DNA of 64,000 nt, from positions 970,952 to 1,034,951 of the forward strand of contig CAWHBG010000002.1 in assembly GCA_963827565.1 (NCBI GenBank), written 5' to 3'. The notes beneath the pieces were generated by a model. It made no database searches. It saw only the letters and a list, made by a program, of their open reading frames with translations, and had not been told where the DNA came from. Positions 15,510 through 44,883 of this stretch are shown here, in pieces. Both the position numbers and the translations under genes were made by a program. The stretch comes from Candidatus Aminicenantes bacterium. Lineage in GTDB: Bacteria > Acidobacteriota > Aminicenantia > UBA2199. Within the stretch, counting starts at the first letter, position 1; the number at the start of each line of letters is the position of its first letter.

Positions 15510-15511
15510 AC

Positions 15512-16830: not shown

Positions 16831-16891
16831 TTTTCAATATGAAGAATAAATTATTAGTACACTAGAATCAAGAAGTATCAAATTAATTTCT

Positions 16892-16973: not shown

Positions 16974-16983
16974 GATAAAATTC

Positions 16984-23090: not shown

Positions 23091-23099
23091 GAGACGAAC

Positions 23100-23600
23100 A
23101 TGAAAAACAGAAGAAATAAAGAGAAAGGTTCAGTTCTTATACTTGTACTCTTCGGAGTTATAATCCTCTCCATGATGGGGGTAACAGGACTTAACCGAAG
23201 TAAGACCGAAATAAGTATTACAAGGAATTTTTTTGCTGACAAGGACTCATTCTTTACGGCTGAGAACGGGATCAGCATGGGAACTGATATGTTAAGGGAT
23301 TCGGTTGATCCGGCAGGTGAAATATTCGGTCCGGTTACCGACGGGACAAGGACCTTCCGGAGCGGCCCCTTGTACGATACATACGGATATAAGATAACAG
23401 ACCCCCAATATATCACACCCTTTCTTGCTTTCGATCCGCCACCGCCAATAGGGATATCACTGGAGACAAGCGGTTCCATGGGTGTGGCAGTCACACCCTG
23501 GCAGGTGATATCCTCCTCCGCGGTCAAAGTTCCCGGAGGCGGCAATGACGCAAGGAAAGAAGTAAGGTCGATCGTCGTTATGTTAAATTCCGAATATTAG
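23100..23600 (+). CDS. PilX-like pilus assembly protein
   Basis: N-terminus KGSVLILVLFGVIILSMMGVTGLNRSKTEISITRN resembles the PilX N-terminal domain. Located directly upstream of pilY1. Confidence 0.55.
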   Translation: MKNRRNKEKGSVLILVLFGVIILSMMGVTGLNRSKTEISITRNFFADKDSFFTAENGISMGTDMLRDSVDPAGEIFGPVTDGTRTFRSGPLYDTYGYKITDPQYITPFLAFDPPPPIGISLETSGSMGVAVTPWQVISSSAVKVPGGGNDARKEVRSIVVMLNSEY

Positions 23601-23609
23601 GAGGAAGAG

Positions 23610-26939: not shown

Positions 26940-26941
26940 AA

Positions 26942-27789: not shown

Positions 27790-30700
27790 TCAGTTCCAGA
27801 TTTTGCTTTTTTCCGCATCCTTCACTTTGTCAAGAAGCACTTCCACTCCTTTGTTAAGTTGTCTGTCAATGCCCTTTCTCTCTTCCCCCGGTAGGTTCTC
27901 AACGGGATAATCCGGCGGACATCCGTTCAGTTCCATATTTGTCATTGTTCCGTCATTAACATACCATCCCCTGAACGGGAGTCTGAGCCAGGTTCCGTCA
28001 ATAAGGGCCGTCCCGCCTGTGGAAATTACGGCACCAAAGGTCTGTTTACCAACGATAGGGCCACGCTTTAAAGTACGGATCGACCAGGGAAATATCTCTG
28101 CATTTGAATATGACATCTGGTTGATAAGAACTACTATCGGTTTTGTATATGCAAAGATCGATCTTCTCCCATGGGGATATCCTTTCCCCCCACCCCTTGG
28201 GATGGTGACAGCATGATTTTTTGTCATCAGGATCTGAAGGAGATAATCCGTTATCCATCCGCCACCGTTGTACCTGACATCAATTACAAGCCCTTCTTTT
28301 CCATAAGCTATTGAATGCAGTTCTCTCTCAAACTTCTCCAGATTCGGCCATCCCATCGACTGAATGTGAACATATGCCAGTTTACCCCCGGACAACTCAT
28401 CAACCTTCTTCTGATTGCTCCCGATCCAGGTATTGTAAATAAAATTCCGGTTACTTTTTTCAGGTATTATCTCCACATCAAGCTTGTCCTCTCCTCTCAG
28501 AACCTGAAGCATTACGGCTTCTCCGGCCTTGTCCTCCATGAACATGTAAAAATTTGCACCTGTCCCGGCATCCTCACCGTTGATAGAAGTAATGATATCT
28601 CCTTCCTCCAATCTGCTGTTCTTATGGTATGCGGGTGAATCTTTCAGCACTGTTTTCACTCTGAATCCGGGCCCCTTAAAGTTATCGTCAAAGAATACTC
28701 CGATATCACCGGTTTCCACTTTTTTCCTCTCCTTCTCCATTCTCGATTTTATCCTCAGATGGGAACCGTTCAATTCGCCGAGGATCATTGTAAAAATATA
28801 GTCAAACTCATATCTGCTGAGTCCTTCATTTATCCAGGGCCTGTATTTATTATAGATCCCGTTCCAGTCTGTTCCATGAAACTTAGCGTCATAAAAATTA
28901 TCTCTCATTGCTCTCCAGGCTTCTTCAAATTTCTGGATATTCTCAGCGCCCATGTCAATTGTAAGTTTTGCACTAAAAGGTATCGTTTTTGGTTTCCCCT
29001 TTTTTATATTCATTTGATTGAGCATTCCCGATTTAATGAAGAAAAGGTCATCGCCTTTATCACCGAAATGGAGAGACCCGAATTCGTTCCCTTTATTTAT
29101 AAGGATTTTTTTCTCTTTGCCGTCCCATCCGATCTTATAGAGGCCGGTACCTTCATCATTACCGGCAGTGAAAGCAATAGTTTTACTGTTGGGAGAAACA
29201 GCAAGTCCGAATTCATCTCCGAGGAGTTCCGTCAGATGGGTCACACGGAGGTGGATATCATTGAATTCAATGGGAAGGGGCGGGGTCTTCACCTCTGGCG
29301 CCTTTTCACCATCTTTTTCAGCCGGTTTCTTTTTCTTATTGTCCTCCTCCATTTTTTGCCATTCATCCGGTGTCATTTCGAACCACTCTTTTCTGAGAGC
29401 AAGCCTCCATATATCCATATTATTGTTACTTCTCTTCGAAATAAAATAGAGAAATTTCCCGTCAGGCGACCATATGGGGAAATAATCATCATCAGGATGC
29501 CTTGAAATATTGAAGGCTTTGCTATCCTTTAGGTCATAAATATAGACATCTGATGTAAAATTATTGTCCATATGTGAATAGCTCAGGTAATTCCCGTCGG
29601 GAGACCAGGTTATATCACTAACATTCCAGCTTTTAAGCAGAAAGTTTTCGGTCTCTTCCCCTATTGTCTTCATAACAAGGTTACCGTTCCCTTTAATATA
29701 TACAATTTTTTTATTGTCAGGCGACAGGACACCATATCTCTCTTCTGCTTCAGACCCTGTCAATTGTTTCAGCTTATATTTATATGAGTGATATATATCT
29801 CTTTCGCCCTCGGGATAGGCTATAAATATATCACGGTTCCCGTTCATGTCGGAATCGAACAATACTCCCCTGCTGTCACTTGTCCATGAAATATTTGCTT
29901 CTCTGTAGGGAGAATTTGAAATATTCTTCGCCCTCTCCCAATCTTTCTTCAAAACAAAAATTTCTCCCCTGATGACAAAAGCATAATAATTGCCGTCAGG
30001 AGAGACTCTCATTTCACTTGCTTCCGAAGTGTATGATCTTTTCACAATATAGTCATGTTTATTTTCAGTAGAAGCAGATATTTCAAGAGGATATGCATCT
30101 TCACCCTCATCCTTCCTGAAGAGTTTGTTAAGATATTCATAGATCACAAACTTCCCGTCCGGAGAAATCGCAGGGAATCTTACCTGATCGCCCTTATGGA
30201 AAGTGAGCTGGGTCTTATTTTCCCCGTCCCTTTCCATTTTCCAGAGATTAAAGGTTTCATCCCTGTCAGACACATAATATAAACCTCCCTGCCCGAACAC
30301 CGGCCACTTATCGTTCCCCGGATGCTCTGTGAGTTTGAAGTACCTGTCCTTCTCAAGATTATAAACCCAGATATCATTGTTGGCAGGGCCTCTGTACCTC
30401 TGCCTGAACTCGGGGATTCTGTTTATATTAAATGCGAGAAATTTACCATCTTTTGACAAAGAACCGTTCATTGCCATCTGCCCCATCAGTAATAGAGGCA
30501 TTCCCCCGGTTACAGATACAGAAAAGATCCCCGAATTTCCGTAATAAAAGTGAAGATCTCTTCTTGAGTGGAATATTACAGCGGATCCATCACCCTTCCA
30601 ACCGGTTACTTCATCATCAGATGACCTGTAAGTAAGCTGCTTGGCATGTCCCCCTTCAGAAGGTATGATGAACACATCATAGTTCCCGTCTCTGTCAGAG

Positions 30701-30942
30701 GAAAATGCTATCATTTTACCGTCAGGAGAGAATTTCGGCCTTACATCATTACCGATATGATCGGTCAGCCTCTCACTCCTTCCCCCTTTTACCGGTGCCT
30801 TCCATATATCACCTTTATAACTGAATACAACATATTGGGAATCCGGTGAAATATCCGGATATCTGAGCAGAGAAATATCCTCACCGGCAGTCAACAAAAA
30901 TGAGATTAATAAGATCTGAACTAAAAAGAATAATTTTTTCAT
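27790..30942 (-). CDS. Tricorn-like protease (TolB-type beta-propellers + PDZ + S41 peptidase), secreted
   Basis: 1050 aa with a signal peptide. The start LLRYPDISPDSQYVVFSYKGDIWKAPVKGG is typical of tricorn homologs. There are repeated WSPDG/SPDGK propeller blades and a C-terminal S41 region (DVRYNGGG). Confidence 0.8.
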   Translation of the reverse strand: MKKLFFLVQILLISFLLTAGEDISLLRYPDISPDSQYVVFSYKGDIWKAPVKGGRSERLTDHIGNDVRPKFSPDGKMIAFSSDRDGNYDVFIIPSEGGHAKQLTYRSSDDEVTGWKGDGSAVIFHSRRDLHFYYGNSGIFSVSVTGGMPLLLMGQMAMNGSLSKDGKFLAFNINRIPEFRQRYRGPANNDIWVYNLEKDRYFKLTEHPGNDKWPVFGQGGLYYVSDRDETFNLWKMERDGENKTQLTFHKGDQVRFPAISPDGKFVIYEYLNKLFRKDEGEDAYPLEISASTENKHDYIVKRSYTSEASEMRVSPDGNYYAFVIRGEIFVLKKDWERAKNISNSPYREANISWTSDSRGVLFDSDMNGNRDIFIAYPEGERDIYHSYKYKLKQLTGSEAEERYGVLSPDNKKIVYIKGNGNLVMKTIGEETENFLLKSWNVSDITWSPDGNYLSYSHMDNNFTSDVYIYDLKDSKAFNISRHPDDDYFPIWSPDGKFLYFISKRSNNNMDIWRLALRKEWFEMTPDEWQKMEEDNKKKKPAEKDGEKAPEVKTPPLPIEFNDIHLRVTHLTELLGDEFGLAVSPNSKTIAFTAGNDEGTGLYKIGWDGKEKKILINKGNEFGSLHFGDKGDDLFFIKSGMLNQMNIKKGKPKTIPFSAKLTIDMGAENIQKFEEAWRAMRDNFYDAKFHGTDWNGIYNKYRPWINEGLSRYEFDYIFTMILGELNGSHLRIKSRMEKERKKVETGDIGVFFDDNFKGPGFRVKTVLKDSPAYHKNSRLEEGDIITSINGEDAGTGANFYMFMEDKAGEAVMLQVLRGEDKLDVEIIPEKSNRNFIYNTWIGSNQKKVDELSGGKLAYVHIQSMGWPNLEKFERELHSIAYGKEGLVIDVRYNGGGWITDYLLQILMTKNHAVTIPRGGGKGYPHGRRSIFAYTKPIVVLINQMSYSNAEIFPWSIRTLKRGPIVGKQTFGAVISTGGTALIDGTWLRLPFRGWYVNDGTMTNMELNGCPPDYPVENLPGEERKGIDRQLNKGVEVLLDKVKDAEKSKIWN

Positions 30943-31044
30943 TCCACCACCTCTATTATAAGTTTAATGAAAAAATATAGCATATAAGTTTAAATTTGAA
31001 AATTTTTTTTGGAAATATGGAATTTAAAAACTAACAAAAAAGGC

Positions 31045-31072
31045 CGCCCCCGAAGGGACGGCCCATATGTTA
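31045..31072 (-). terminator. Rho-independent terminator of barrel gene copy 1
   Basis: The minus strand reads gggccgtccc-ttcg-ggggcggcc followed by tttttt. The sequence is identical at 37973..38002. Confidence 0.75.
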
Positions 31073-31094: not shown

Positions 31095-33959
31095 TTAGAA
31101 GTTAACTCTGAATCCAAACTGGAATATCCCGGGATTAAGGATCCTCTGGATAGCACCAGTTGCTGATGTACCAAGTAACGGCTCAACACCTAATGTAATA
31201 GCATTATTTGTTACATTGTATGCATCTACAAAAAGTGTTGCTGTTACTGTGTCAGATACCTTAAAGGTCTTCTCAAGTCCCATGCTCAGCATCCAGAATG
31301 TAGGCAACCTGTCATCACCCATTTTTTTATTGGGTTGATACATGTTCGTCCAGCTGAGTCCGGAGCCTCTCTGAAATTCTTCATAGTAAGGGATGACATA
31401 ACCTTCTCTTGCCTGAAGAACAGCGGTTATATTTATTCCCCAGGGCAATTGATAAAGGCCTGACATTTTCAACATCCATCTGGAGTTAACAAAGATTCCC
31501 GTGTATCCTGATCCACCGGATTCCGGTGCCACAACCGCTTCGTTGAAAAAATCGTAGTTTGTCTTATCAAACCACTCTGAAGTATCTCTTTTTGCAATCC
31601 AATCCTGATAGGTGAATGATGCATCGAACATCCATTTGTTCGAGAATTTCTTTGTGAATACAAGCTGAAGTGCCAAATACTGGTTGTAGGTTTTCTCATA
31701 GTTGGCCATCTGTTGAGCAACACCGACTTCATATCTTTCATAATAAGGTTTGGTTGATCCGTCAGAGAATGTATAAATCCCCTTCTGATACCAGTTAGCA
31801 GCAGTTTCAAGACTGCCATCCGCCATGATATTCTTGTATCTGATCTGATTGTGTTTTTTCTTATAGAAAAGGGTAACATTCGTTGCAAAATCTTCTCCCA
31901 GCTCTTTCTCAAATGAAAGTGATAATTCATCAAGTATAGGTGAATTGAGATCTGACGCGTATGTGTTACTGCTTGTTACTCCATAAGGATTAACTGTATC
32001 TACATGCCAATAATACCAATCATCTGGATCTTCACTCCATTCACCAAGTTCAACAATACCATCGCCATCATCTGCCCAGTAAACATCAATTTCTCTCCAG
32101 TCAAGAGCCCAGGTATGATCAGCAATGGAGTTACCACTCTGTGATCCGTACCTTGCAGCAGATAATTTTATAACATTCTTCCCGTCACCGGTAATATCAT
32201 ATGAGAACGAAAGTCTTGGAGAAAACACTTCAAAAGCTGCATCTGCTTTAGCTCCAATAGCTGTTCTGTCACCCAGGTAAGCTGTGAATATGGGAACACC
32301 GTTAAGTGTTAATCCCGGAGCTGTTGCAGGATTGTGTGATCCTGATTCTTTATCATATCTGAGGCCGATGTTAGCTGTTAATTTTCCAAATGTTATTGTA
32401 TCGGACAGGTAGAATGACATCCTTTCAAATCCAACATCATACACGTAGTTGGGGTACCACCAGATCTCTCTGTAGTAACCCGGATCTCCTCTGTCCCATG
32501 AGTACAGAAACCTTTGGTTGGGATACAGTGACTGAGATGTTGTATCCGCTGTGTAATAATCAACACCGAATCTGATCTCATGGTCACCGCCGAGTACTCC
32601 CTCAGCAAAATAGTTACCGCTGAGTGAAAGGTTCAATGTATTTCTGTTGGTGAAATAATCGTACATTCCGCCCTCTACATAGAATCCGGGCTGGGAATAA
32701 TAAGTCCAGTCATCACCCACCATTTTACCGTCTTCAATAACATTGGTAGGATTATTTGAAATCAGCTCAAATCCACCGTCTGTGTAAGCGAACTTTGCTG
32801 TTAACATCAGATTGCCCATGATGTGCTGCAGTGAACCGGTGTAAACCGCGCCCGGACCATCCTGGTTGTGGAGTGATTCCTGAACTGCTGCGCCCCATCT
32901 GGCACGACCCCACTTTTTCTTTGCATCATATGAATAGTGGAAATCACCACTGGTGTTACCCAATTGGAAATTTACCTTACCATAAGCTGATACCAGCCAT
33001 GTTGCATCCTCACCGCCTGTGATCTGTCTGGCGTGAATGTCCTGTACTCCCCATGATCCGAAGAACCACAATTTGTCCTTTACGATCGGGCCACCGAAGT
33101 TAACGCCATACTGATACAATCTGAAGATTCCGGGTGATACCAATCCTTGATCCAGAATAGATTGGGGAAGATCCTGACTCATTTCCCATGCTTCATCTTC
33201 AATATAAAGATGAAAGTCTCCACTATAATTATTACCTGCTCTCTTCGAAACGAAGTTCAGCTGTACTCCACCTGTCTGAGCTGTAATATCATTGCTGCCA
33301 AGTGTGATCTGAAGTTCTTCATATGCATTAACATTCAGATAAGCAGGAGCAGATCCGATCGCTGACGGGTCTGTCATGTTAGCGCCGTCAATGTTCCATG
33401 TTGTATCATCGGAATCTGATCCATGGCCATAAAATGATGACTGCTGACCTGATTCAGCTCCACCAACATCTTCCCTGTCCATCATCATACCTGGTACCAG
33501 GTTCATGACTGTCCATGGGTTTCTTGCTGTCGGAAGTGACTGCATCATTTCCTGTGATACATTAACTGATACTGTTGTCTTTCTTGTATCAATTACATTT
33601 GCCTCTCCTGTAACTTCTATAACTTCTTTTAACTGAGAGGTCTCCATCTGAAAGGTAAAGGTCTTGTTCTTACCAACGAACAGCCTTATCGCTTTCTGAA
33701 CTACTGTCTTGAACCCTTCGAGCTCAAGCTTTAATTCATAAATTCCCGGGGGATTTGAGAGAAATCTGAAATTCCCCTGTTCAGATGTAACTGTAACTGT
33801 CTTACCGATAACATCACCGGTCAGAGTTACTGCTACTCCGGGGATTGCTGATCCATCAGGCAGTACTACTGTACCGTAGATGTCAGCTGTTGCTCCCTGA
33901 GCGAATGCCAGTCCTGAAAGAACTGCAACCGCTACGAGCAGTGTTAAAAAATTTTTCAT
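31095..33959 (-). CDS. Oar-like outer-membrane barrel (carboxypeptidase-regulatory-like domain + TonB-dependent-receptor-type plug and barrel), copy 1
   Basis: 954 aa with a signal peptide (LSGLAFAQG). CarboxypepD_reg-like segment GTVVLPDGSAIPGVAVTLTG...GNFRF..PPGIYELK.E.EGF, a plug-like region, and a terminal aromatic FGFRVNF. AGGAGG lies before the ATG. Confidence 0.8.
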   Translation of the reverse strand: MKNFLTLLVAVAVLSGLAFAQGATADIYGTVVLPDGSAIPGVAVTLTGDVIGKTVTVTSEQGNFRFLSNPPGIYELKLELEGFKTVVQKAIRLFVGKNKTFTFQMETSQLKEVIEVTGEANVIDTRKTTVSVNVSQEMMQSLPTARNPWTVMNLVPGMMMDREDVGGAESGQQSSFYGHGSDSDDTTWNIDGANMTDPSAIGSAPAYLNVNAYEELQITLGSNDITAQTGGVQLNFVSKRAGNNYSGDFHLYIEDEAWEMSQDLPQSILDQGLVSPGIFRLYQYGVNFGGPIVKDKLWFFGSWGVQDIHARQITGGEDATWLVSAYGKVNFQLGNTSGDFHYSYDAKKKWGRARWGAAVQESLHNQDGPGAVYTGSLQHIMGNLMLTAKFAYTDGGFELISNNPTNVIEDGKMVGDDWTYYSQPGFYVEGGMYDYFTNRNTLNLSLSGNYFAEGVLGGDHEIRFGVDYYTADTTSQSLYPNQRFLYSWDRGDPGYYREIWWYPNYVYDVGFERMSFYLSDTITFGKLTANIGLRYDKESGSHNPATAPGLTLNGVPIFTAYLGDRTAIGAKADAAFEVFSPRLSFSYDITGDGKNVIKLSAARYGSQSGNSIADHTWALDWREIDVYWADDGDGIVELGEWSEDPDDWYYWHVDTVNPYGVTSSNTYASDLNSPILDELSLSFEKELGEDFATNVTLFYKKKHNQIRYKNIMADGSLETAANWYQKGIYTFSDGSTKPYYERYEVGVAQQMANYEKTYNQYLALQLVFTKKFSNKWMFDASFTYQDWIAKRDTSEWFDKTNYDFFNEAVVAPESGGSGYTGIFVNSRWMLKMSGLYQLPWGINITAVLQAREGYVIPYYEEFQRGSGLSWTNMYQPNKKMGDDRLPTFWMLSMGLEKTFKVSDTVTATLFVDAYNVTNNAITLGVEPLLGTSATGAIQRILNPGIFQFGFRVNF

Positions 33960-33990: not shown

Positions 33991-34010
33991 AGCAATACCC
34001 TTTCCCAGGG
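33991..34010 (-). promoter_or_regulatory. Candidate -24/-12 (sigma-54-like) promoter of barrel copy 1
   Basis: The minus strand reads ctGGgaaagggtatTGCttc, with GG and GC in the canonical 12-nt register about 33 nt upstream of the ATG. A similar element sits at the same position in copy 2. Only a partial match to TGGCAC-N5-TTGCW. Confidence 0.3.
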
Positions 34011-34031: not shown

Positions 34032-34062
34032 GGGACAAAACGATTGTTTTCGGGGACAAACG
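34032..34062 (-). promoter_or_regulatory. Direct repeats CGTTT(T)GTCCC, two copies about 20 bp apart, upstream of barrel copy 1
   Basis: The minus strand reads cgtttgtcccc-gaaaacaat-cgttttgtccc. One copy of the same motif (ccgtttgtccc) occurs at 40972..40982 at the same distance from the copy 2 promoter-like element. Confidence 0.35.
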
Positions 34063-34206
34063 ACCTATTTATGACCACCAAATATATAAAAACGATTCCG
34101 GATATTAAGATATAAAATAAATTTTGTGGCTTTATTCATTTTTACGAACTATTAAATCCAATATTTTGATTAAAGCGCTGTTGATAAAAAGAAAGATCCG
34201 GTAATT

Positions 34207-34566
34207 TTAGAGAAACAGGTCAGGGCTTATCTCTTCTTCGTTCATATTAAGCATATCCAGGTTTAGAGAGACCTTTTTCCTGATCTTTCTCAGATTGTAT
34301 TTTTTGATCTTTTCACAAAGAGAAGTTTCTTTGATCCCCAGGATCCGTGACGCATTTTTTTGATTCCCGTTTGTCAGCCCGAGTGTAAAAAGAATTATCT
34401 TCCTCTCCAGATCACTTATAAAATGTTTAAGGGCAATGTTTTCCTGAGTTATATTCTTCTGAAGATATTCTCTCACCAGAACTTCGGAAAGATCATCCAG
34501 TCCGGATAGATCATTTGAATTATACGTATTATTAATTTTATTTGAAAGTATTTGACTGCTTTTCAT
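34207..34566 (-). CDS. Small Fis-type helix-turn-helix protein (no AAA+ or receiver domain), copy 1
   Basis: 119 aa. The C-terminal NGNQKNASRILGIKETSLCEKIKKYNL is a Fis/NtrC-C-terminal type HTH. The N-terminal ~60 aa have no recognisable domain. Confidence 0.6.
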   Translation of the reverse strand: MKSSQILSNKINNTYNSNDLSGLDDLSEVLVREYLQKNITQENIALKHFISDLERKIILFTLGLTNGNQKNASRILGIKETSLCEKIKKYNLRKIRKKVSLNLDMLNMNEEEISPDLFL

Positions 34567-34577
34567 ATTTTCTCTCC

Positions 34578-34904
34578 TTAATTAGCAAGAACCCTTTTTA
34601 AGTTATTCCTGAACTTCTTCCCCCATAACACTGTCACATCATCGCTCATTACGACAAAATAATTATAGTTCAGATCTGATTCAATCTTTTGAATCTTCTC
34701 TATATTAATAATCGTAGACCTGTTCACCCTGACAAACTTATCCGGATCCAGTTTTTTCTCAAACTCAGACAAAGTATTTCTTATCAGAAAAGAATTCTTC
34801 CCTTTATAAAGCCTCTGATAATTCCTCTCTGATTCGATCCTGTCAATATCCTCACATTTCAGGACGATGAATTTTCTACCAAGCTTTACCATTAAACGGT
34901 TCAT
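34578..34904 (-). CDS. Stand-alone LytTR DNA-binding domain protein (no receiver), copy 1
   Basis: 108 aa. The pattern I..IES..NY....K..SFLIR.TLSEFEKKL....F.RVNRS.I.NI..I is the LytTR domain signature. AGGAG lies upstream. Confidence 0.75.
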   Translation of the reverse strand: MNRLMVKLGRKFIVLKCEDIDRIESERNYQRLYKGKNSFLIRNTLSEFEKKLDPDKFVRVNRSTIINIEKIQKIESDLNYNYFVVMSDDVTVLWGKKFRNNLKRVLAN

Positions 34905-34965
34905 TTCCTTTTCTCCTAAATTAGCCTGCTATATATTAATACGATCAAAAATGAACAAAATTCTA

Positions 34966-34977
34966 TAACTTTGGTTA
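34966..34977. promoter_or_regulatory. Conserved imperfect palindrome TAACTTTGGTTA (site 1, copy 1)
   Basis: An identical 12-mer occurs at 41927..41938, in the equivalent divergent intergenic region of copy 2. Confidence 0.4.
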
Positions 34978-35016
34978 TTTATTCAAATTTGTGAATTTAG
35001 TAATACACAATTCGAC

Positions 35017-35034
35017 ATATGACTTTAGTCATAT
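35017..35034. promoter_or_regulatory. Perfect palindrome ATATGACT-TT-AGTCATAT (site 2, copy 1)
   Basis: 8-bp arms. The copy 2 counterpart, TGTTACT-TT-AGTAACA at 41981..41996, keeps dyad symmetry through paired substitutions. Confidence 0.45.
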
Positions 35035-35140
35035 TCGCAGACAATTCTCCACTTTCTTTCTTAAGTTTCGTATTAACATTCATGAAAGTGAATATTTGTG
35101 AAACATTTATGAAAATTTTTTCGTTTTAAACAATGTAGAT

Positions 35141-37909
35141 ATGAAGAACTTTATTATCATAATTGTGTTTATTATCGGGATAAGTGTATTCCCTGTGTAT
35201 TCAAATGATCTTATCAATTCATTATCATTCAACCATATTTCAAAAAAGGATGGATTATCAGATGATCTTGTTTTCTCGATATTTCAAGACAGCTATGGGT
35301 ATATATGGATAGGAACATCCAATGGCCTCAACAGGTATGACGGATACAATTTTAAAATATTTGTAACTAATCCAAAAGATCCTGAGTCAATAGCTCATAA
35401 CGTAGTTACCTGGATATGTGAAGATAATGACAAAAATATCTGGCTTGCAACTTATGGCGGAGGAGTTTCAAAATTTGACAGGAGAACCAACACTTTCAGG
35501 AATTATATGTCTTTTGACAAAACAAAAGAAAATAACGGTTTAATAGTAAATCATATCAATTTAGATTCAAAAAACAGGTTGTGGATATCTTCAAAAGGCG
35601 GAGGTCTCATTTTATTTATTCCCGGGACTCAAAAGGTAAAACGTTTCGGAAATAATCCGGTTAATTCAGACTCACTAAACGAAGACAATATCATGTCTAC
35701 TTTTGAAGATTCAAGCGGCAATATATGGATCGCAACCTGGGGAAGCGGTTTGTATAAATATTGTGAAGTGAGCAAAGAGTTTAAACAAATAATATCTGAT
35801 CCCTATACAGGAAATGATGTGCAATACAAATATATTCATTCGATCCTGGAAGATCCGGAAAAAAACCTCTGGCTCGGAACCGGCAAGACCGGACTTGTAA
35901 AATATATAAAAAAAACAGGCAGTTTCCAGAGTTTCGGTATAGAACAAGACAGAGTTGTGCATATAAGAAAAAAGAAAATAAGTACAATTTTTCATGACCC
36001 CGATAACGACAACCTCATATGGATCGGCACCGAGAACGGGCTCTATATTTACAGAATTGCAGAGGACAAGTTTATTGAATACAAAAAGGAGAACAGTGAA
36101 GCCGGGCTCTCTAATAATTATGTCTGGAGTATATTAAGAGACAGATCAGGACTATTATGGATAGGAACCATTGGAGGAGGACTAAATTTAGAGAAGAGAG
36201 GCAGTGAATTCTTTTCCCTGTTCGATAAAGTGGAACAAAAAGGGAATATATTTAATTCCCCAAACATATCAGCTGTTTACACTGACAAAAGAGATGCTTC
36301 AATATTATGGGTTGGTACATTGGGAAGTGGTTTACAAAAGGTAGATCTCCAATCCGGAAAATCAGAAATGGTGAGAATTTCAGTTCATAAGAACAATTTA
36401 ATTGCAGGAAAGAACATTACCCGCATTAATCCTGATCCTGACAATCCGGATATTTTATATATTGGGACAAATTCCGGACTCAGCAAATATAATATCAGGG
36501 AAAATCTTTTTGTAAGGCTGGAATCTCCGTTAGATGAATTGAGCAAGTTTAATTCAGCATTTATTTCTACTCTAAAAACCTCTGGTCCATCTCCAAGGTT
36601 ATTGTGGATAGGATCACTTGGCAGGGGACTGTATAAACTTGATCTTGATAAATATAACCTTTCAAACTATTTGCTCCAGAAGGATTTCAGGAATAATCCG
36701 GAGAGGAATAGAGTTTATACAATATCCCCTTCATTAACAGACAAAAACACATTATGGCTTGGAACAAATGAGGGCCTCACCCGATTTGCGATCCGTTCAG
36801 GGATATTTAAATTAATTTTTCCGAAAACAACAACTAAACCCGGAATAACCGCACCGGTTTTATCAATTTATGAATCTGAACATCAACCTGGAATCATATG
36901 GTGCGGTACAAGGAAAAATGGATTGATCAGGTTTGATACCAGCAGCAATTCTTTTAACAGATTAAGTATAAATAACGGATTGCCCGATAATTCTATTGTT
37001 TCCATAGTGGAAGAACCCCGGGGTACTTTATGGCTCGGGACATTAAAGGGACTCTCACGTTTTATTATCAGCACAGGTAAATTCAGGAATTTTGACAAGC
37101 GTGAAGGACTGAACAATTCGAGTTATAATCTTAATACATCCCATGTAAGCCATGACGGAATAGTATTCATAAGCGGTTCGAACGGAATAGATTGTTTTTC
37201 ACCGGAGAGGCTGAATACTAATATGCACATACCCCCTATTGTTATCACAGGGCTGAAAATTTTCGGTAGTTCAGAACTCCCGGGAATGGATCAGATCCTG
37301 AAAAATGATATTTCTTTAACAGATGAAATTACACTTCCGCACTATTACAATACATTGACTTTAAGTTTCGCCGCACTCGATTATACCTCCCCTAAAAAGA
37401 ACCAGTTTTCATGCAGGCTTGAATCTCTAAATAGTAACTGGACCTTTCTCGGAACAAAAAATAGTATAAATTACAGGGATCTGAAACCGGGAAAATATAC
37501 TTTCATTGTAAAAGGATCCAATAGCGACTCGATCTGGAATGAGACAGGCAGGAAACTGACCATAATAATAACTGGAACTTTAATCAGTTCATTCTGGTTC
37601 TGGATAATAATTGCTGTTATTGTTTTTTTCATGGTCTTTCTTTTAAGATACCTGGTCAGAAAATTTAAAAAGAACAGTATCCCTCCGGGAACAACTATTG
37701 AACAGCTAATTCGTGATGAGATAATTACTGAAAGAGAAAAAGAGATAATCACACTTATTCTGCAGGGAAAAAGCAATAAAGATATAGAGGATGAATTATT
37801 CATTTCACTCGGAACTGTCAAAAATCATCTCTATAACATTTATAAAAAACTTAATGTTAAAAGCCGGACACAACTGGTAAGTATTGTAAGATCTGAAGAA
37901 AAACCTTAA
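35141..37909 (+). CDS. Membrane-tethered one-component regulator: signal peptide, two-component-regulator beta-propeller repeats, Y_Y_Y domain, TM helix, LuxR/GerE HTH; copy 1
   Basis: 922 aa with repeated ...IW(I/L)GT..GL..(Y/F) propeller blades. Y_Y_Y region YRDLKPGKYTFIVKGSNSDSIWNE, TM helix FWFWIIIAVIVFFMVFLL, and C-terminal ITEREKEIITLILQGKSNKDIEDELFISLGTVKNHLYNIYKKLNVKSRTQLV. Confidence 0.8.
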   Translation: MKNFIIIIVFIIGISVFPVYSNDLINSLSFNHISKKDGLSDDLVFSIFQDSYGYIWIGTSNGLNRYDGYNFKIFVTNPKDPESIAHNVVTWICEDNDKNIWLATYGGGVSKFDRRTNTFRNYMSFDKTKENNGLIVNHINLDSKNRLWISSKGGGLILFIPGTQKVKRFGNNPVNSDSLNEDNIMSTFEDSSGNIWIATWGSGLYKYCEVSKEFKQIISDPYTGNDVQYKYIHSILEDPEKNLWLGTGKTGLVKYIKKTGSFQSFGIEQDRVVHIRKKKISTIFHDPDNDNLIWIGTENGLYIYRIAEDKFIEYKKENSEAGLSNNYVWSILRDRSGLLWIGTIGGGLNLEKRGSEFFSLFDKVEQKGNIFNSPNISAVYTDKRDASILWVGTLGSGLQKVDLQSGKSEMVRISVHKNNLIAGKNITRINPDPDNPDILYIGTNSGLSKYNIRENLFVRLESPLDELSKFNSAFISTLKTSGPSPRLLWIGSLGRGLYKLDLDKYNLSNYLLQKDFRNNPERNRVYTISPSLTDKNTLWLGTNEGLTRFAIRSGIFKLIFPKTTTKPGITAPVLSIYESEHQPGIIWCGTRKNGLIRFDTSSNSFNRLSINNGLPDNSIVSIVEEPRGTLWLGTLKGLSRFIISTGKFRNFDKREGLNNSSYNLNTSHVSHDGIVFISGSNGIDCFSPERLNTNMHIPPIVITGLKIFGSSELPGMDQILKNDISLTDEITLPHYYNTLTLSFAALDYTSPKKNQFSCRLESLNSNWTFLGTKNSINYRDLKPGKYTFIVKGSNSDSIWNETGRKLTIIITGTLISSFWFWIIIAVIVFFMVFLLRYLVRKFKKNSIPPGTTIEQLIRDEIITEREKEIITLILQGKSNKDIEDELFISLGTVKNHLYNIYKKLNVKSRTQLVSIVRSEEKP

Positions 37910-37972: not shown

Positions 37973-38002
37973 AAAAAAAAGGCCGCCCCCGAAGGGACGG
38001 CC
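37973..38002 (-). terminator. Rho-independent terminator of barrel gene copy 2
   Basis: Same hairpin as 31045..31072, with an 8-nt U-tract on the minus strand. It marks the junction between the two cassette copies. Confidence 0.75.
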
Positions 38003-38033
38003 CATATGTTAATACCGTTTTTAGTTTACGATA

Positions 38034-40897
38034 TTAGAAGTTAACTCTGAATCCAAACTGGAATATCCCGGGATTAAGGATCCTCTGGATAGCACCAGTT
38101 GCTGATGTACCAAGTAACGGCTCAACACCTAATGTAATTGAATTATTGGTTACATTGTATGCATCTACAAAAAGTGTTGCTGTTACTGTGTCAGACACCT
38201 TAAAGGTCTTCTCAAGTCCCATGCTCAGCATCCAGAATGTAGGCAACCTGTCATCACCCATTTTTTTACCGGGTTGATACATGTTGGTCCAGCTGAGGCC
38301 GGAACCTCTCTGAAATTCTTCATAATATGGAATGACATAACCTTCTCTTGCCTGAAGAACACCGGTGATATTGATGCCCCAGGGAAGCTGATAAAGTCCT
38401 GACATCTTCAGCATCCATCTGGAGTTCACAAAGATACCGGTATATCCGGATCCTTCGGATTCCGGTGCCACAACGCCCTCATTGAAATAATCGTAGTTTG
38501 TCTGATCAAAAAACTCTGAAGAATCTCTTTTTGCAATCCAATCCTGATAAGTGAAAGATGCATCGAACATCCATTTGCTCGAGAATTTCTTTGTTAATAC
38601 AAACTGTACAGCCAGGTATTGGTTATAGGTTTTCTGATAGTTTGCCATCTGGGTAGCAACACCTACTTCATATCTTTCATAATAAGGTTTGCTTGATCCG
38701 TCAGAGAATGTAAAAGTCCCCTTCTGATACCAGTTAGCTGCAGTCTCAAGACTGCCGTCAGCCATGATGTTCCTGTACCAAAGCTGTTTGCTTTTCTTCT
38801 TATAGAAAAGTGTTACATTCGCGGCAAAATCAGCTCCCAGCTCTTTCTCAAATGAAAGTGATAATTCATCAAGTATAGGTGAATTGAGATCTGATGCGTA
38901 TGTGTTACTGCTTGTTACTCCATAAGGATTAACTGTATCTACATGCCACCACAACCAGGTTGATGGATCTTCATCCCACTCACCAAGTTCAACAATACCA
39001 TCGCCATCATCTGCCCAGTAAACATCAATTTCTCTCCAGGAAAGAGCCCATGTATGGGAAGCAATTGAGTTACCACTCTGTGATCCGTACCTTGCTGCTG
39101 AAAGCTTGATCACATTCTTACCGTCACCTGTAATATCATATGAGAACGAAAGTCTTGGAGAAAATACCTTAAAAGAACCATCTGCTTTAGCTGCAATAGC
39201 TGTTCTGTCACCCAGGTAAGCTGTGAATATGGGAACACCGTTAAGTGTTAATCCCGGAGCTGTAGCCCCATTATGTGAGCCTTGTTCCTGATCATATCTG
39301 AGTCCGATGTTGGCTGTTAATTTACCGAATGTTATTGTATCGGACAGATAGAATGACATCCTTTCGAATCCGACATCATACATATAGTTCGGATACCACC
39401 AGATCTCTCTGTAGTAACCCGGATCGGTTCTGTCCCATGAGTACAGAAACCTTTGGTTGGGATACAGTGACTGAGATGTTGTGTCCGCTGTGTAATAGTC
39501 AACACCGAATCTGATCTCATGGTCTCCGCCGAGTACTCCCTCAGCAAAATAGTTACCGCTGAGTGAAACGTTCAATGTGTTTCTGTTGGTGAAATAATCC
39601 TGCATTCCGCCCTCTACATAGAATCCGGGCTTAGAATAATAAGTCCAGTCATTACCGACCATTTTACCGTCTTCAATAACATTGGTAGGATCATTTGATC
39701 TCAGCTCAAATCCGCCGTCTGTATAAGCGAACTTGGCGGTTAACATCAGGTTGCCCATGATATGCTGCAATGAACCGGTCATAACAGATCCCGGGCCATC
39801 CTGGTTCCAGAGTGATTCCTGAACTGCAGCGCCCCAAATAGGCCTACCCCATTTTTTCTTTGCATCATATGAATAGTGGAAATCACCACTGGTATTACCC
39901 AATTGGAAATTTACCTTACCATAAGCTGATACCAGCCAGGATGCATCCTCGCCGCCTGTGATCTTCTGGCGTGAATGTCCTGTACTCCCCATGATCCGAA
40001 GAACCACAATTTGTCCTTTACGATCGGGCCACCGAAGTTAACGCCATACTGATACAATCTGAAGATTCCGGGTGATACCAATCCTTGATCCAGAATAGAT
40101 TGCGGAAGATCCTGACTCATTTCCCATGCTTCATCTTCAATATAAAGATGAAAGTCTCCACTATAATTATTACCTGCTCTCTTCGAAACGAAGTTCAGCT
40201 GTACACCACCTGTCTGAGCTGTAATATCATTGCTGCCAAGTGTGATCTGAAGTTCTTCATAAGCATTAACATTCAGATAAGCAGGAGCAGATCCGATCGC
40301 TGACGGGTCTGTCATGTTAGCGCCGTCAATGTTCCATGTTGTATCATCGGAATCTGATCCATGGCCATAAAATGATGACTGCTGACCTGATTCAGCTCCA
40401 CCAACGTCTTCCCTGTCCATCATCATACCTGGTACCAGGTTCATGACTGTCCATGGGTTTCTTGCTGTTGGAAGTGACTGCATCATTTCCTGTGATACAT
40501 TAACTGATACTGTTGTCTTTCTTGTATCAATTACATTCGCCTCTCCTGTAACTTCTATAACTTCTTTTAACTGAGAGGTTTCCATCTGAAAGGTAAAGGT
40601 CTTGTTCTTACCAACGAACAGCCTTATCGCTTTCTGAATTACTGTTTTGAACCCTTCGAGCTCAAGCTTTAATTCATAAATTCCCGGGGGATTTTGAAGG
40701 AATCTGAAATTCCCCTGTTCAGATGTAACTGTAACTGTCTTACCGATAACATCACCGGTTAAAGTTACTGCTACACCCGGGATTGCTGATCCATCAGGCA
40801 GTACTACTGTACCGTAGATGTCAGCTGTTGCTCCCTGAGCGAATGCCAGTCCTGAAAGAACTGCAACCGCTACGAGCAGTGTGAATAATTTTTTCAT
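38034..40897 (-). pseudogene. Oar-like outer-membrane barrel, copy 2, interrupted by a 1-nt deletion relative to copy 1
   Basis: ORFs 38034..40007 and 39911..40960 are colinear with copy 1. The span is 2864 nt against 2865 nt in copy 1. Copy 1 reads gtgatctgtctggcg and copy 2 reads gtgatcttctggcg, at about 39964. The real start is MKKLFTLLVAV (ATG at 40897, AGGAGG upstream). Confidence 0.8.
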
Positions 40898-40930
40898 ATA
40901 AACCTCCTTTAAGTTTATCAAATGTATAGT

Positions 40931-40982
40931 ATGCATAAACCTTTCCCGTAAGCAGATCAATTATTCTCAATGGGACAAACGG
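40931..40982 (-). promoter_or_regulatory. Copy 2 counterpart of the -24/-12-like element plus the CGTTTGTCCC motif
   Basis: The minus strand reads ccgtttgtccc (40972..40982), followed about 25 nt later by acGGgaaaggtttaTGCat (40931..40949). Spacing matches copy 1. Confidence 0.3.
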
Positions 40983-41161
40983 TAAAAATTCAGGGATAAA
41001 AAAACAAATAGTTTTACTGAAAACCCAATGCATGTTCAAAAACAAATCGCCAACATTCATCGTTTTGTATATATTCCAATATTCCGTATTTTTTAGATCG
41101 GTTATATGGATTTTCGGACTATATATTGATATTTGAAAAAATTAATCGTGAGTTTCTTTTA

Positions 41162-41530
41162 TCAGACAAAGAGATCCTGACTGATATCATCTTCTCCCAT
41201 ATTGAGCATATCCAGATTGAGCAGGATCCGCTTTTTATCTTTTTTTAAATTGTATTTTTTTATTTTTTCACAGAGCGAAGTCTCCTTGACACCAAGAATT
41301 CGCGATGCATTTTTCTGATTTCCATTCGTTAGCGAGAGCGTAAAATCAATTATACGTTTCTCAAGATCTGTCATAAATTTTTTTAACGAAGTATTCTCTT
41401 TAGTAATATTTTTCATTAAATACTCACGTACAAGTATTTCAGACAGATCATTAATATTTTTCAGTCCTTTATAGTTCCTTGTTTCGTTATTATTTGTATT
41501 GTTAGTGTTTACTATAATTTCTTGTTCCAT
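41162..41530 (-). CDS. Small Fis-type HTH protein, copy 2
   Basis: 122 aa. The C-terminal NGNQKNASRILGVKETSLCEKIKKYNL is almost identical to copy 1, while the N-terminal part has diverged. Confidence 0.6.
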   Translation of the reverse strand: MEQEIIVNTNNTNNNETRNYKGLKNINDLSEILVREYLMKNITKENTSLKKFMTDLEKRIIDFTLSLTNGNQKNASRILGVKETSLCEKIKKYNLKKDKKRILLNLDMLNMGEDDISQDLFV

Positions 41531-41539
41531 TTTTCCTCT

Positions 41540-41890
41540 TTAATTATAAAGTACCTTCTTGAGATTGCTTCTGAATTTTCTCCCCCATGAAACCGTTACT
41601 TTGTTGTTCATAACAACAAAATAGTTATAATTTGGGTCTGACTCGATCTTACTGATCTGTTCAATATTAACAATAGCAGATCTGTTAACACGAACAAATT
41701 TGTTCGGATCAAGCTTTTTTTCAAAATTTGAAATTGTATCTCGTATAAGAAAAGAATTATTACCCTTATACACCCGGAGATAATTCCTTTCAGATTCGAT
41801 CCAGTCAATATCTTCACATTTCAGGATAATCAATTCCTTCCCAAGTTTCACTACCAACCGTTCCATTTTTTTCCCAGCAATATTTTCCAT
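41540..41890 (-). CDS. Stand-alone LytTR domain protein, copy 2
   Basis: 116-aa ORF. From the internal MERLVVKLG (ATG at 41866) it aligns without gaps to copy 1, with 81 of 108 residues identical by my count. Start codon choice is uncertain. Confidence 0.75.
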   Translation of the reverse strand: MENIAGKKMERLVVKLGKELIILKCEDIDWIESERNYLRVYKGNNSFLIRDTISNFEKKLDPNKFVRVNRSAIVNIEQISKIESDPNYNYFVVMNNKVTVSWGRKFRSNLKKVLYN

Positions 41891-41926
41891 ACCCTATTTA
41901 TACGCAGTTTTTCAAACTATAATATG

Positions 41927-41938
41927 TAACTTTGGTTA
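41927..41938. promoter_or_regulatory. Conserved imperfect palindrome TAACTTTGGTTA (site 1, copy 2)
   Basis: Identical to 34966..34977. Confidence 0.4.
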
Positions 41939-41980
41939 CTAATTCAATAATGTGAATAAAGTAATCAGATTTGCAGAGCG

Positions 41981-41996
41981 TGTTACTTTAGTAACA
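41981..41996. promoter_or_regulatory. Palindrome TGTTACT-TT-AGTAACA (site 2, copy 2)
   Basis: 7-bp arms. Same core, ACT-TT-AGT, as 35017..35034, at a similar distance from site 1 (54 nt against 51 nt). Confidence 0.45.
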
Positions 41997-42110
41997 TCTT
42001 AAATCTATTAAATATAAATCTGTAATAATTTCAGCATTTGTTCTAAAAAAACCTTTTTGTTAATTACTAAACTCTATATTAATTTACCCCGTATAATGCT
42101 AGTTAAAAAC

Positions 42111-44883
42111 ATGAGAACTTTACTAATAAATATACTATTACTCTTTATGATATTTCCTTCATTTGCAGAGGAGATGAATATTGATCTCTCATTTAGTCAT
42201 ATCAATAAAGACGATGGATTATCAGATGATATGATATTTTCAATTTTCCAGGACAGTTCCGGATATATCTGGATCGGTACATCCAACGGCCTAAACAGAT
42301 ATGATGGATATAATATACAAAAAATTTTTTTTGAACCTGAGTCTCCCTCTTCTCTCCCTCACAATACTGTAACCTCGATCTGTGAGGACAATGAAAACAA
42401 TATCTGGATTGCTACATTCGGCGGTGGAATATCTCGTTTTGTTCCAGATACTAACAATTTCAAAAACTATACCTTCTCCAAACAGACAAGCGACCCCGAA
42501 AGCGCAAAAATGATAAACCATATTCAAACTGATTCAAAAAACAGATTGTGGGTCTCAACGAGGGGAGCCGGAGTATTTCTTTTTAATCTTAAAACAAATG
42601 AAATAAAGAACTTCAGCAATATCTCTTTCGGCATGAAAGAGGAAGTTTTAAGCAATGTTATGTCGACTTTTGAGGATTCTAACGGCATCATATGGATCGC
42701 TGCATGGGGTGGTGGCCTGGGAAAATACATCGAAGAGAATGGAATAATAAGAAAAACAGTTCCAAAGAAATCTATAGATACTCCAGGCAGGGGGAATCTC
42801 ATTCACACCATTTTTGAGGATGCCGAAAAAAATCTATGGCTCGGCACACGAGATCACGGAATTATCAGATTTAACAGGATATCAGGGAACTATCGAACTT
42901 TCGGTTTAGAAAAGAACCGGAAAGTAAGTATGATCGGAAAAAGTATTAATTATATTTTTTCAGATCCGGGAAATCACAATCTGATCTGGATAGGCACTGT
43001 TAACGGATTATATGTTTATAAGATCTTTGAAAATAAATTTATCAGTTACAAAAATAAAGACCTCCATTCAGGCCTTAGTAATAATTATATCTGGAGTATT
43101 ATAAGGGACAGATCAGGATTGTTGTGGACAGGAACAATCGGAGGCGGTGTTTTTTTAGAGAAAAGGATAAGAGATTATTTCGGAAGTTTCAATACAACCG
43201 GACCGGAAGGTTACAACCTCAGTTCAAATGTGATCGGATCACTATATTCAAATCAAAATGATTCCGAGAACCTCTGGGTAGGGACCATCGGCGGTGGACT
43301 GAACAGAATAAACCTGAAAACAGGTAAGATCAATTCATATATCTCAAATAACAGAGAGGTCAGTTCATTTACCCCCAGATATATTAATTCTATTATTTCA
43401 GATCCGGATTCTCCGGGTTTTATATTCCTTGGGACAAGTTCTGGATTGAATAAATTCGATATCATCCGGAACGACTTCATTAAGATAACATCATCCAGAA
43501 AAAAATTAGAAGGTTTTAATTCTGTTTTTATCTCAGATCTTATGTTGTCAGAATTTCATAAGGGTTATCTCTGGATCGGCACACATGGAGAAGGGCTTTT
43601 CAAGCTTAACCTGGATGATATGTCTCTTAAAAATTATATTTTCGAAAAAAAAATACGGAACAATTTGGAGAAGAACAGAGTGTATGTGATTAAGCAGTCC
43701 CTTTTAAAAGCAAATATTCTATGGACCGGAACAAACCTTGGACTTGGTAAATTTGATACCGAAAAAGGGACATTCCGGTTTTTTAAAATAATAAACACTG
43801 ATCAATCCGATGAAAAAACATTCGTTCAGTCCTTACATGAATCAGTAACCGAACCTGGAGATATTACGGATCGGAACATGGGGAAAAGGATTGTTCCGCT
43901 TTGATGAAAATAACGGAGCTGTCAGAAGGTTTACAGTAAATGAGGGACTCCCCAACGATTATATAGTTTCAATAGTTGAGGAACCTGTAGGACGTTTGTG
44001 GATCGGGACCCAGGCCGGACTTTCCAGTTATATTATAAAATCGGGGTTTTTCAGAAATTTTAATACAGATGAAGGGCTTCAGAACACCCTTTTCAGATTA
44101 AATGTTTCATTCAAGAACTCGGAAAAAACAATTTTTCTCGGTGGATCAAAGGGGATAGACTATTTCTCCCCGGACAAATTGAGTACGAATATGGTCAAGC
44201 CTCCTGTAGTACTTACAGGATTAAAAGTTTTCGGGAGTACAGAGTTGCCAGGTATGGATGAAATATTAAAAACTGATATTTCAGTGACTGAACAAATCGA
44301 ACTACCCTACAAATACAACACAATAACGATAAGTTTCTCAGCTCTGGATTTCACTTCAACCGGAAAGAATCAGTATGCCTGTAAGATTGAAGAACTTGAT
44401 AAAGAGTGGAAATATCTCGGCACTCAGAATTTTATATCCTACTCAAAACTAAAACCGGGGAAATATACTTTTAAGGTGAAAGGATCTAACAGCGATTCGG
44501 TCTGGAATGAGAAGGGAAGAACTTTAGGCATTATTATTCAGAGTTCTTTTACAAGAACTTTTCTGTATAAAATAATCTATGCCATAATTCTGATCTTCCT
44601 TATTTCCCTGATTTTGTATCTCTGGAGGAAATTGAGACAGATATCATTCTCTCCGGGGATGACCATAGAAAAGCTTATCAGAAAATTCGATATAACAGAG
44701 AGAGAGGCAGATGTAATAAAGTTGATTATTAATGGGAAAAGCAACAAAGAGATCGAAGAGGAATTGTTTATATCACTTGGAACTGTAAAAAATCATCTTT
44801 ATCACATTTACAGGAAACTAAACATCCATAGCAGAACTCAACTTATAAAACTTTTCCGGTCTGACAATCAAAAAGAGGATTGA
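42111..44883 (+). pseudogene. Propeller / Y_Y_Y / TM / LuxR-HTH regulator, copy 2, reading frame broken once
   Basis: ORFs 42057..43904 and 43891..44883 together are colinear with the 922-aa copy 1 protein. The likely start is MRTLLINILLLF (ATG at 42111). The span is 2773 nt, not a multiple of 3. The frame switch lies within 43849..43901 (...TEPGDI / LRIGTWGKGLFRFDENNG...). Confidence 0.75.

Follow-up and report, generated by a model that had tools for sequence, protein, structure and literature searches.

We show that a 64-kb stretch of the genome of a Candidatus Aminicenantes bacterium (contig CAWHBG010000002.1, positions 970,952 to 1,034,951; hereafter the window) contains two copies of a modular Aminicenantes uptake cassette whose output is an Oar-like TonB-dependent barrel. 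In each copy, the barrel gene is accompanied by a two-gene operon, which encodes first a bare LytTR domain (LytTR-mini) and then a Fis-like protein with a helix-turn-helix (HTH) of the HTH_8 family (HTH8-mini), and by a divergent gene for a large sensor-regulator of the BguR type. The separate parts of the cassette all belong to known kinds. What is undescribed is their combination, namely an operon of a LytTR-only and a Fis-like-only protein at sigma-54 transporter promoters, together with a BguR-type sensor and without a local ATPase; the literature that we consulted on LytTR and sigma-54, on TonB or sigma-54 in Aminicenantes, on Fis-like proteins and on activators devoid of a DNA-binding domain does not describe the pair. 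We tentatively propose a cascade that runs from the sensor through the operon of small regulators to a sigma-54-type barrel promoter, a reading that we prefer and to which we nonetheless assign somewhat less than an even chance.

The large protein belongs to the BguR type of one-component regulators that span the membrane and, by analogy with BguR, would activate transcription of the adjacent transporter locus in response to a ligand. Pfam and NCBIfam scans of the open reading frames (ORFs) identified Reg_prop repeats (E 2e-38), a Y_Y_Y domain at residues 747-810 and a GerE HTH at residues 861-915, and hydropathy analysis found hydrophobic segments only at residues 1-25 (an N-terminal signal or transmembrane (TM) segment) and at about 815-842 (the single TM segment), in agreement with a helix at 818-844 in the AlphaFold2 (AF2) model, whose predicted local distance difference test (pLDDT) score is 84. 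Foldseek placed BT4663 and BT3049 at the top of the structural matches, the best being the periplasmic sensor of BT4663 (PDB 4A2M; E 6e-62, 28% identity). A hidden kinase or receiver in the sensor is ruled out because only about 80 residues remain on the cytoplasmic side, and these are filled by the GerE HTH after a short linker; likewise, HisKA, HATPase_c and Response_reg had no Pfam match at E<=0.01, the threshold used for phosphorelay domains, in any of the three regulators. BguR-like genes occur at 80 loci in Aminicenantes, several per genome, and the same sensor module is elsewhere fused to kinases, SpoIIE phosphatases, cyclases, GGDEF domains and a sigma-54 activator module. The last of these fusions is represented by P0149 and P0187 (loci L193 and L194; L-numbers denote related loci), proteins of 1196 aa with the order propeller/Y_Y_Y sensor, TM segment, Sigma54_activat and HTH_8, which by their sequence are membrane-tethered one-component sigma-54 activators. 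Their hosts have type IX secretion, and their genes do not adjoin barrels.

Neither small regulator has a hydrophobic segment by hydropathy. The LytTR match of LytTR-mini spans positions 2-97 of the 98 in the profile. HTH8-mini matches the NCBIfam Fis model (E 2.6e-6) and, in a profile comparison with the PDB, residues 16-97 of Escherichia coli Fis (E 1e-8); its AF2 model has four helices (21-40, 46-64, 69-76 and 80-89) that end in a C-terminal HTH, and Foldseek ranks Fis first, followed by the DNA-binding domains of NtrC1 and NtrC4. Residues 1-17, the region of the beta-hairpin arm in Fis, are disordered in the model, with a pLDDT below 50 and no secondary structure, and a conserved acidic and hydrophobic C-terminal tail (LNLDMLNM-EEEISPDLF) is also modelled with low confidence. 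A family search with HTH8-mini returned 773 matches at E<=1e-5, full-length activators included; nearly all of the top 120 are proteins of about 100-150 aa with a generic annotation and HTH_8 as their sole recognised domain family. Outside this mini family, the closest relatives are the C-terminal HTH_8 domains of NtrC-type activators (45-56% identity to HTH8-mini) from other lineages, in which the activator gene lies directly upstream of that for an Oar-like barrel. These results bear out much of a preliminary description of the locus, made from the sequence alone, which had assigned the same domains to the three regulators, likened the topology of the large one to that of ToxR, and seen neither kinase nor receiver in the trio; profile searches brought no cryptic one to light. 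Its count of three DNA-binding proteins per barrel also holds, as both cassettes carry the full set. Finally, it had not recognised the system, which is correct for the combination but not for the large regulator, given the match of the latter to the BguR type.

The promoter of the barrel gene had been overlooked in the preliminary description. We aligned the barrel upstream region from ten window-type loci, as we call cassettes like the two in the window, and found three conserved blocks against a mean identity of 42%. The block nearest to the gene likely places the barrel behind a sigma-54-type promoter: GG-N10-GC, with TTGC[AT] at -12, is present in 9/9 aligned cassettes 47-52 nt before the ATG, and GG and TGC are the sole invariant bases of that stretch across nine diverged cassettes, whose flanks drift. 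More distant relatives have textbook sigma-54 promoters (TGGCAT-N5-TTGC[AT]) at the corresponding place, including TGGCATTTAAATTGCA in the LytTR-type locus L027, TGGCACGGATCATGCT in L058/59 and TGGCATGNTATTTGC[AT] in all receiver-only-type loci. Oar-like transporters are likely to be under sigma-54 control in several lineages. The second block consists of two copies of GTCCC exactly 21 bp apart (GTCCC-N16-GTCCC) in 10/10 cassettes, within 9-bp units GTTYGTCCC that are separated by a 12-bp spacer and extend from roughly -78 to -49 relative to the inferred barrel start site. The repeat core resembles the AlgR sites CCGTTCGTC and CCGTTTGTC; GTT[CT]GTC is contained in 8/20 repeats, and cassette 2 has CCGTTTGTC as its second repeat. 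The direct repeats are confined to loci with LytTR-mini, including L010 and L038, which have no adjacent sensor, and are absent from LytTR-less loci. Since they persist in these two loci, where no sensor gene was detected within 10 kb upstream of the pair, a reading of the GTCCC repeats as DosR-like GerE sites is less likely. Some 140 nt upstream of the -24/-12 element comes the third block, TTGGAT-N7-ATCCGG-N6-TTGGAT, with enhancer-like palindromes of HTH_8 geometry; it is a candidate site for HTH8-mini.

The case for this promoter rests on conservation across loci because inside the window alone the counts of GTCCC-N16-GTCCC, ACTTTAGT and TGGCAY-N5-TTGCW are not above chance. In addition, the matches of a generic promoter scan were no more frequent than in shuffled sequence, and neither the window nor two sister loci gave an Rfam match. 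In receiver-type loci (L014 at about 7700-7860, L015, L016, and L020 at about 6060-6130), a long leader separates the sigma-54 promoter from the start of the barrel gene and holds a conserved terminator-like hairpin, AGAGGCTGTTTGAGGC...GCCTCAAGCAGCCTCTTTTTTTTT, again with no Rfam match, which may serve as an attenuator or belong to a small RNA.

The region between the operon and the sensor gene has a fixed layout. In twelve window-type loci, counted from the LytTR ATG, the palindrome P3 lies at -128, ATTCA-N6-TGAAT at -92, the palindrome P1 at -73 and the -10-like GTATWAA at -38. P1 would thus be centred near -42 of a putative sigma-70-type operon promoter, the position of a class II activator. 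Paired copies of the same 16-bp palindrome, ATTCA-N6-TGAAT, stand some 100 nt upstream of the sigma-54 promoters in sister loci that have HTH8 only, which makes it a good candidate for a sequence bound by HTH_8 dimers.

With hidden Markov models built from the related loci, we found 39 distinct adjacent pairs of LytTR-mini and HTH8-mini genes, all on Aminicenantes-type contigs and with gaps of typically 2-17 nt. In the 24 pairs in which the gene 3' of the pair could be assessed, it encodes an Oar-like barrel in 11, another pair in 4 and a BguR-like protein in 2. A BguR-like gene adjoins the pair in 9/19 cases with enough flank on both sides, and does so in three orders: divergent, upstream (L112) and downstream (L001 pair 4 and L040). 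The related loci come almost all from metagenome-assembled genomes (MAGs) of Aminicenantes (Acidobacteriota); the closest, L001, has a LytTR-mini that is 95% identical and four LytTR/HTH8 pairs inside 20 kb. The neighbourhood that the preliminary description had reported for this genome is kept beyond it, linkage to the Oar-like barrel included; the trio of regulators is nevertheless not obligatory, since the pair is found at only about 10 of the 80 BguR-like loci, and about 12 others hold nothing of it but a divergent HTH_8 gene.

Three kinds of gene are found immediately upstream of HTH8-mini in Aminicenantes: LytTR-only, as in the window, receiver-only, or a full regulator of receiver (REC) and LytTR domains, the last in L058/59. 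In the receiver-only loci there are, in addition, genes for a kinase, for a complete REC-AAA-HTH_8 activator and for an SBP_bac_5 protein. Because sister loci hold a histidine kinase with REC-AAA-HTH_8 and receiver-only proteins, or a REC-LytTR regulator, the sequences indicate that the missing kinase and receiver are a trait of this sub-variant and not of the whole system. Sigma-54 promoters need an AAA+ activator, and most such enhancer-binding proteins are phospho-regulated. Given this requirement and the kinase and receiver genes of the sister loci, the phosphorylation-independent circuit that had been suggested for the locus is not established. Many of the loci L064-L108, which are metagenome contigs, are non-Aminicenantes and have an NtrC-type activator directly upstream of an Oar-like barrel, an arrangement that points to a widespread sigma-54/Oar-like transporter module of which we found no description.

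The genome probably uses sigma-54, to judge by a GAFTGA-bearing REC-AAA-HTH_8 activator in the window and a perfect sigma-54 promoter ahead of a pilin gene. That promoter, TGGCACAGATATTGCT at 21007-21022 (+), falls within a pilin-like gene with an N_methyl motif, shortly after the annotated start, and the true start codon is probably downstream of the promoter; a cluster that ends in a PilY1-like protein comes next (genes 20962-27748). The activator, encoded at 9500-10858, 25 kb from the cassettes, is the sole AAA+ activator in the window and was considered as the ATPase that the barrel promoter would need. It probably serves a divergent gene (7162-8301) instead, because it has its own kinase and a sigma-54-like site there; this site, TGGCAAGTGTATTGCT at 8262-8277 (-), has one mismatch and faces the divergent gene.

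In the cascade that we propose, the BguR-type sensor would perceive a periplasmic ligand through its tandem-propeller/Y_Y_Y domains and contact DNA through its membrane-tethered GerE domain, and the ligand-bound sensor would switch on the mini-operon, on which HTH8-mini may feed back through ATTCA-N6-TGAAT. LytTR-mini would then occupy the two GTTYGTCCC repeats just upstream of the barrel -24/-12 element and a dimer of the Fis-like HTH8-mini the palindromes about 140 nt upstream, and both would shape or mark the promoter at which an AAA+ enhancer-binding protein opens the sigma-54 complex. If sigma-54 serves the barrel promoter, such a protein, encoded elsewhere, must take part. The sequences establish the domains and the topology, the conservation of the pair and of its links to barrels and sensors, and the conserved cis-elements with their geometry; conditional in this proposal are the pairing of proteins with sites, the direction in which regulation runs, and whether an ATPase is involved and which one. 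BguR is a precedent for direct activation by the same architecture.

Several observations weigh against it. About 70 of the 80 Aminicenantes BguR-like genes lack the pair, and therefore the sensor does not need it; related palindromes also lie upstream of pairs without an adjacent sensor, and the operon palindromes could be bound by HTH8-mini and not by GerE. The cassette and all LytTR-type loci, viewed over up to 20 kb, are devoid of a gene for an AAA+ activator, so that the key engine of the model is hypothetical. The window-type -24 element is degenerate, reading GGGAAA or AGGAAT and not TGGCAC, and in the L010/L011 subclade TGA replaces TGC at -12. Moreover, an exhaustive phmmer search with LytTR-mini found no fusion of LytTR with HTH_8; ten matches have an N-terminal LytTR domain followed by a long C-terminal extension, with no HTH_8 or other second Pfam domain.

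The same facts can be read in other ways. It is possible, if unlikely, that the two small proteins are DNA-binding-only remnants that act as decoys or anti-activators and block an unlinked NtrC-type activator at its enhancer and promoter-proximal sites, in which case induction would require that they be removed or diluted, and the BguR-like regulator would work in parallel or repress the mini-operon. HTH8-mini does resemble a detached DNA-binding domain of the barrel-linked activators, neither small protein has a recognisable activation or ATPase domain, and in sister loci that hold HTH8-mini beside a complete REC-AAA-HTH_8 activator it is not needed for DNA targeting, because the activator has an HTH_8 of its own. 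Yet the pair is tightly conserved, with many paralogues each by its own barrel, which fits cassette-specific positive control equally well or better, and the direct repeats lie at a typical LytTR activator position. Quite unlikely, in our estimate, is a split enhancer-binding system in which the small proteins are cassette-specific DNA-binding adaptors, each pair switched on by its own membrane sensor. In that system the adaptors would stand in for the DNA-binding (and signal-input) modules of an NtrC-type activator and would guide one shared AAA+ engine, unlinked and possibly without a DNA-binding domain of its own, to many paralogous sigma-54 transporter promoters.

We regard as very unlikely that the tail of the sensor holds LytTR-mini, HTH8-mini or both at the membrane until ligand frees them, in the manner of the membrane inhibitor of streptococcal LytTR regulatory systems, which would amount to a phosphorylation-independent switch across the envelope. 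LytTR regulators under the control of membrane proteins are known (PMC6193735), the linkage of sensor and pair persists in three gene orders, and the C-terminal tail of HTH8-mini is conserved; against this, the cytoplasmic part of the sensor is already a complete GerE domain, BguR activates directly without such partners, and the pair is absent from most BguR-like genes. An equally low probability attaches to the view that sigma-54 has no role here, the -24/-12 element being a decayed relic at a promoter served by a sigma-70-family holoenzyme that LytTR-mini activates directly from the repeats, as at AgrA- and HdrR-type promoters. The irregular -24 hexamer, the TGA subclade and the lack of a nearby AAA+ gene speak for it, as does the position of the repeats (about -49 to -78), which is also where LytTR activators sit when the promoter is of the sigma-70 kind. 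However, GG and TGC are invariant, their spacing is canonical, and the distance to the ATG is as in the perfect sigma-54 promoters of the relatives; on inspection, the alignment leaves no position for a conserved -35/-10 pair that would keep the conserved Shine-Dalgarno sequence in the transcript. Least probable of all, in our judgement, is a loose co-location in which the BguR-like regulator, set in an island rich in its paralogues, serves other genes, such as that of the tricorn-like protease or its own, with no tie to the mini-operon. Aminicenantes have very many BguR-like genes, most of which stand without the pair, and the region is made up of paralogous cassettes in tandem, but their adjacency to assessable pairs has outlasted changes in gene order and the shared intergenic region keeps its fixed site architecture.

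Of the systems already known, the closest to the sensor is BguR of Formosa agariphila, which functions in laminarin utilisation and consists of a signal peptide, two propellers, Y_Y_Y, a TM segment, a linker and GerE, with no phosphorelay; its homologues are reported to be 94-98% from Bacteroidota and always to lie beside beta-glucan polysaccharide utilisation loci (PULs) (bioRxiv 10.64898/2026.01.10.698779). Domain order, the absence of HisKA, HATPase and receiver domains and the adjacent gene for a TonB-dependent transporter are common to both. In contrast to BguR, which is found with a SusC/D beta-glucan PUL, the window sensor belongs to Aminicenantes (Acidobacteriota), lies with an Oar-like barrel and a tricorn-like protease, has two small DNA-binding partners, and the promoter of its target transporter is of the sigma-54 type. 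Bacteroides hybrid two-component systems (BT4663; PDB 4A2L/4A2M) share the periplasmic sensor fold, but the window sensor lacks their kinase, receiver and AraC-type output and has a GerE HTH directly after the TM segment. The barrel has a counterpart in Oar of Myxococcus xanthus (PMC6434023), with which it shares the CarboxypepD_reg-Plug-barrel order and a link to proteases; Oar has been implicated in protease secretion.

The small proteins have parallels of their own. The LytTR regulatory systems HdrRM and BrsRM of Streptococcus mutans (PMC6193735) also have a receiver-less LytTR protein in a two-gene operon and 9-bp direct repeats with a 12-bp spacer upstream of the regulated promoter. They differ in that the partner is a membrane inhibitor and not a soluble Fis-like HTH_8 protein, and in the place of their repeats, which autoregulate the operon from a site immediately upstream of its own promoter: here the repeats stand at the sigma-54-type barrel promoter and the upstream region of the operon itself has palindromes. 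AlgR of Pseudomonas is likewise a LytTR protein with a similar core site, CCGTT(C/T)GTC at algD and algC, one copy of which lies near -45, and it works at complex promoters with an NtrC-family activator, RpoN and DNA-bending proteins (PMC4064291); unlike LytTR-mini, it has a receiver and a cognate kinase, and its sites do not form a tandem pair with a 21-bp period. Lastly, NtrC-type activators with Fis or IHF helpers resemble the cassette in the -24/-12 promoter, the upstream palindromes of HTH_8 geometry and the small Fis-fold protein, and REC-AAA-HTH_8 forms occupy the same place upstream of Oar-like barrels in other lineages; the cassette differs in having the DNA-binding module only, without AAA+ and receiver domains.

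Aminicenantes are abundant uncultured degraders of sediments and digesters. BguR-type sensors emerge as widespread and expanded beyond Bacteroidota, where they are tied to another class of TonB-dependent transporter, and one lineage appears to have swapped an adjacent NtrC-type activator for two domain-sized DNA-binding proteins. If the small proteins target a remote ATPase to single promoters, this would be a new wiring of sigma-54 regulation; if they are decoys, they would be natural dominant-negative regulators derived from activator domains. As to what is taken up, the substrate is probably a protein or peptide because tricorn/S41 proteases recur near the barrels and SBP_bac_5 and peptidase genes are found in sister loci; the tricorn-like neighbour is present again in L040, L059, L140 and L161, and no SusD or glycoside hydrolase was detected among the scanned neighbour genes of the sensor-regulator.

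The features of both cassettes are listed in Table 1. The two genes of the cassette 1 operon are separated by 11 nt. Cassette 2 (38034-44883) has the same four genes, two of them frameshifted: compared with intact orthologues in a related MAG, the barrel and sensor genes differ by one base each, which could reflect early pseudogenisation or an assembly error. Both small regulator genes are intact despite these frameshifts.

Table 1. Genes and candidate control elements of the two cassettes and of the activator locus in the window.
Feature	Coordinates	Strand	Remarks	Basis
Histidine kinase and REC-AAA(GAFTGA)-HTH_8 activator	8428-10858	+	activator at 9500-10858	
Tricorn-like S41/PD40/PDZ protease	27790-30942	-	downstream of barrel 1, own upstream region	Pfam
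Strong intrinsic terminator 3' of barrel 1	31041-31064	-		
Barrel 1, Oar-like TonB-dependent	31095-33959	-	CarboxypepD_reg + Plug + OMP_b-brl_4; monocistronic	Pfam
Sigma-54-type -24/-12 element GGGAAAGGGTATTGCT	33991-34006	-	47 nt before barrel 1 ATG	
Direct repeats GTTTGTCCC - 12 bp - TTTTGTCCC	34032-34061	-	candidate LytTR-mini site	
Upstream block, degenerate form TTGGAT-N7-(A)TYCGN-N6-TGRAT	34134-34161	-	alignment columns 165-195	
HTH8-mini	34207-34566	-	119 aa, Fis-like; HTH_8 at residues 50-90	Pfam HTH_8 E 5e-8
LytTR-mini	34578-34904	-	108 aa, bare LytTR domain	Pfam E 3e-22; PDB 3d6w LytTR domain
Putative -10 GTATTAA of LytTR-HTH8 operon	34936-34942	-		inferred
Palindrome P1 TAACCAAAGTTA	34966-34977	.	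conserved in 11 window-type loci	
16-bp palindrome ATTCA-N6-TGAAT	34981-34996	.	all 12 window-type loci	
Palindrome P3 TGACTAAAGTCA	35020-35031	.	cassette 2 has TTACTAAAGTAA, both arms changed	
Second palindrome, ATTCA-N6-TGAA, near sensor gene start	35078-35093	.	3 loci only	
Sensor-regulator, BguR-type	35141-37909	+	922 aa	Pfam, hydropathy, AF2, Foldseek
Barrel 2, Oar-like	38034-40897	-	1-nt deletion near 39960	
Cassette 2 -24/-12 element and direct repeats	40932-40997	-	element 40932-40946, repeats 40972-40997	
HTH8-mini 2	41162-41530	-	122 aa	Pfam
LytTR-mini 2	41540-41890	-	116-aa ORF; start probably at 41866	Pfam, tblastn
Cassette 2 operon promoter region	41897-41994		-10 41897-41903, P1 41927-41938, ATTCA-N6-TGAA 41942-41957, P3 41983-41994	
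BguR-type regulator 2	42111-44883	+	1-nt insertion near 43855	

The two barrels are paralogues of uneven similarity. The N-terminal third of barrel 2 (39962-40897, compared with 33024-33959) is 98% identical to barrel 1 at the protein level, and a 180-nt stretch sampled within it is 97% identical at the DNA level, as opposed to 91% protein identity for the remainder; this difference between the N-terminal third and the rest suggests recent gene conversion between the two genes. An identical terminator hairpin, GGGCCGTCCCTTCGGGGGCGGCC, lies 3' of both barrels (31041-31064 and 37980-38003, -), and it is found again in related MAGs, for example in L001 at about 13880-13905. In the same locus, the third LytTR/HTH8 pair heads an operon (14128-17126) with genes for a DUF5128-like six-bladed propeller and an AAT-like protein and no barrel, and upstream of this operon lies a CRP-like inverted repeat, TGTGA-N6-TCACA.

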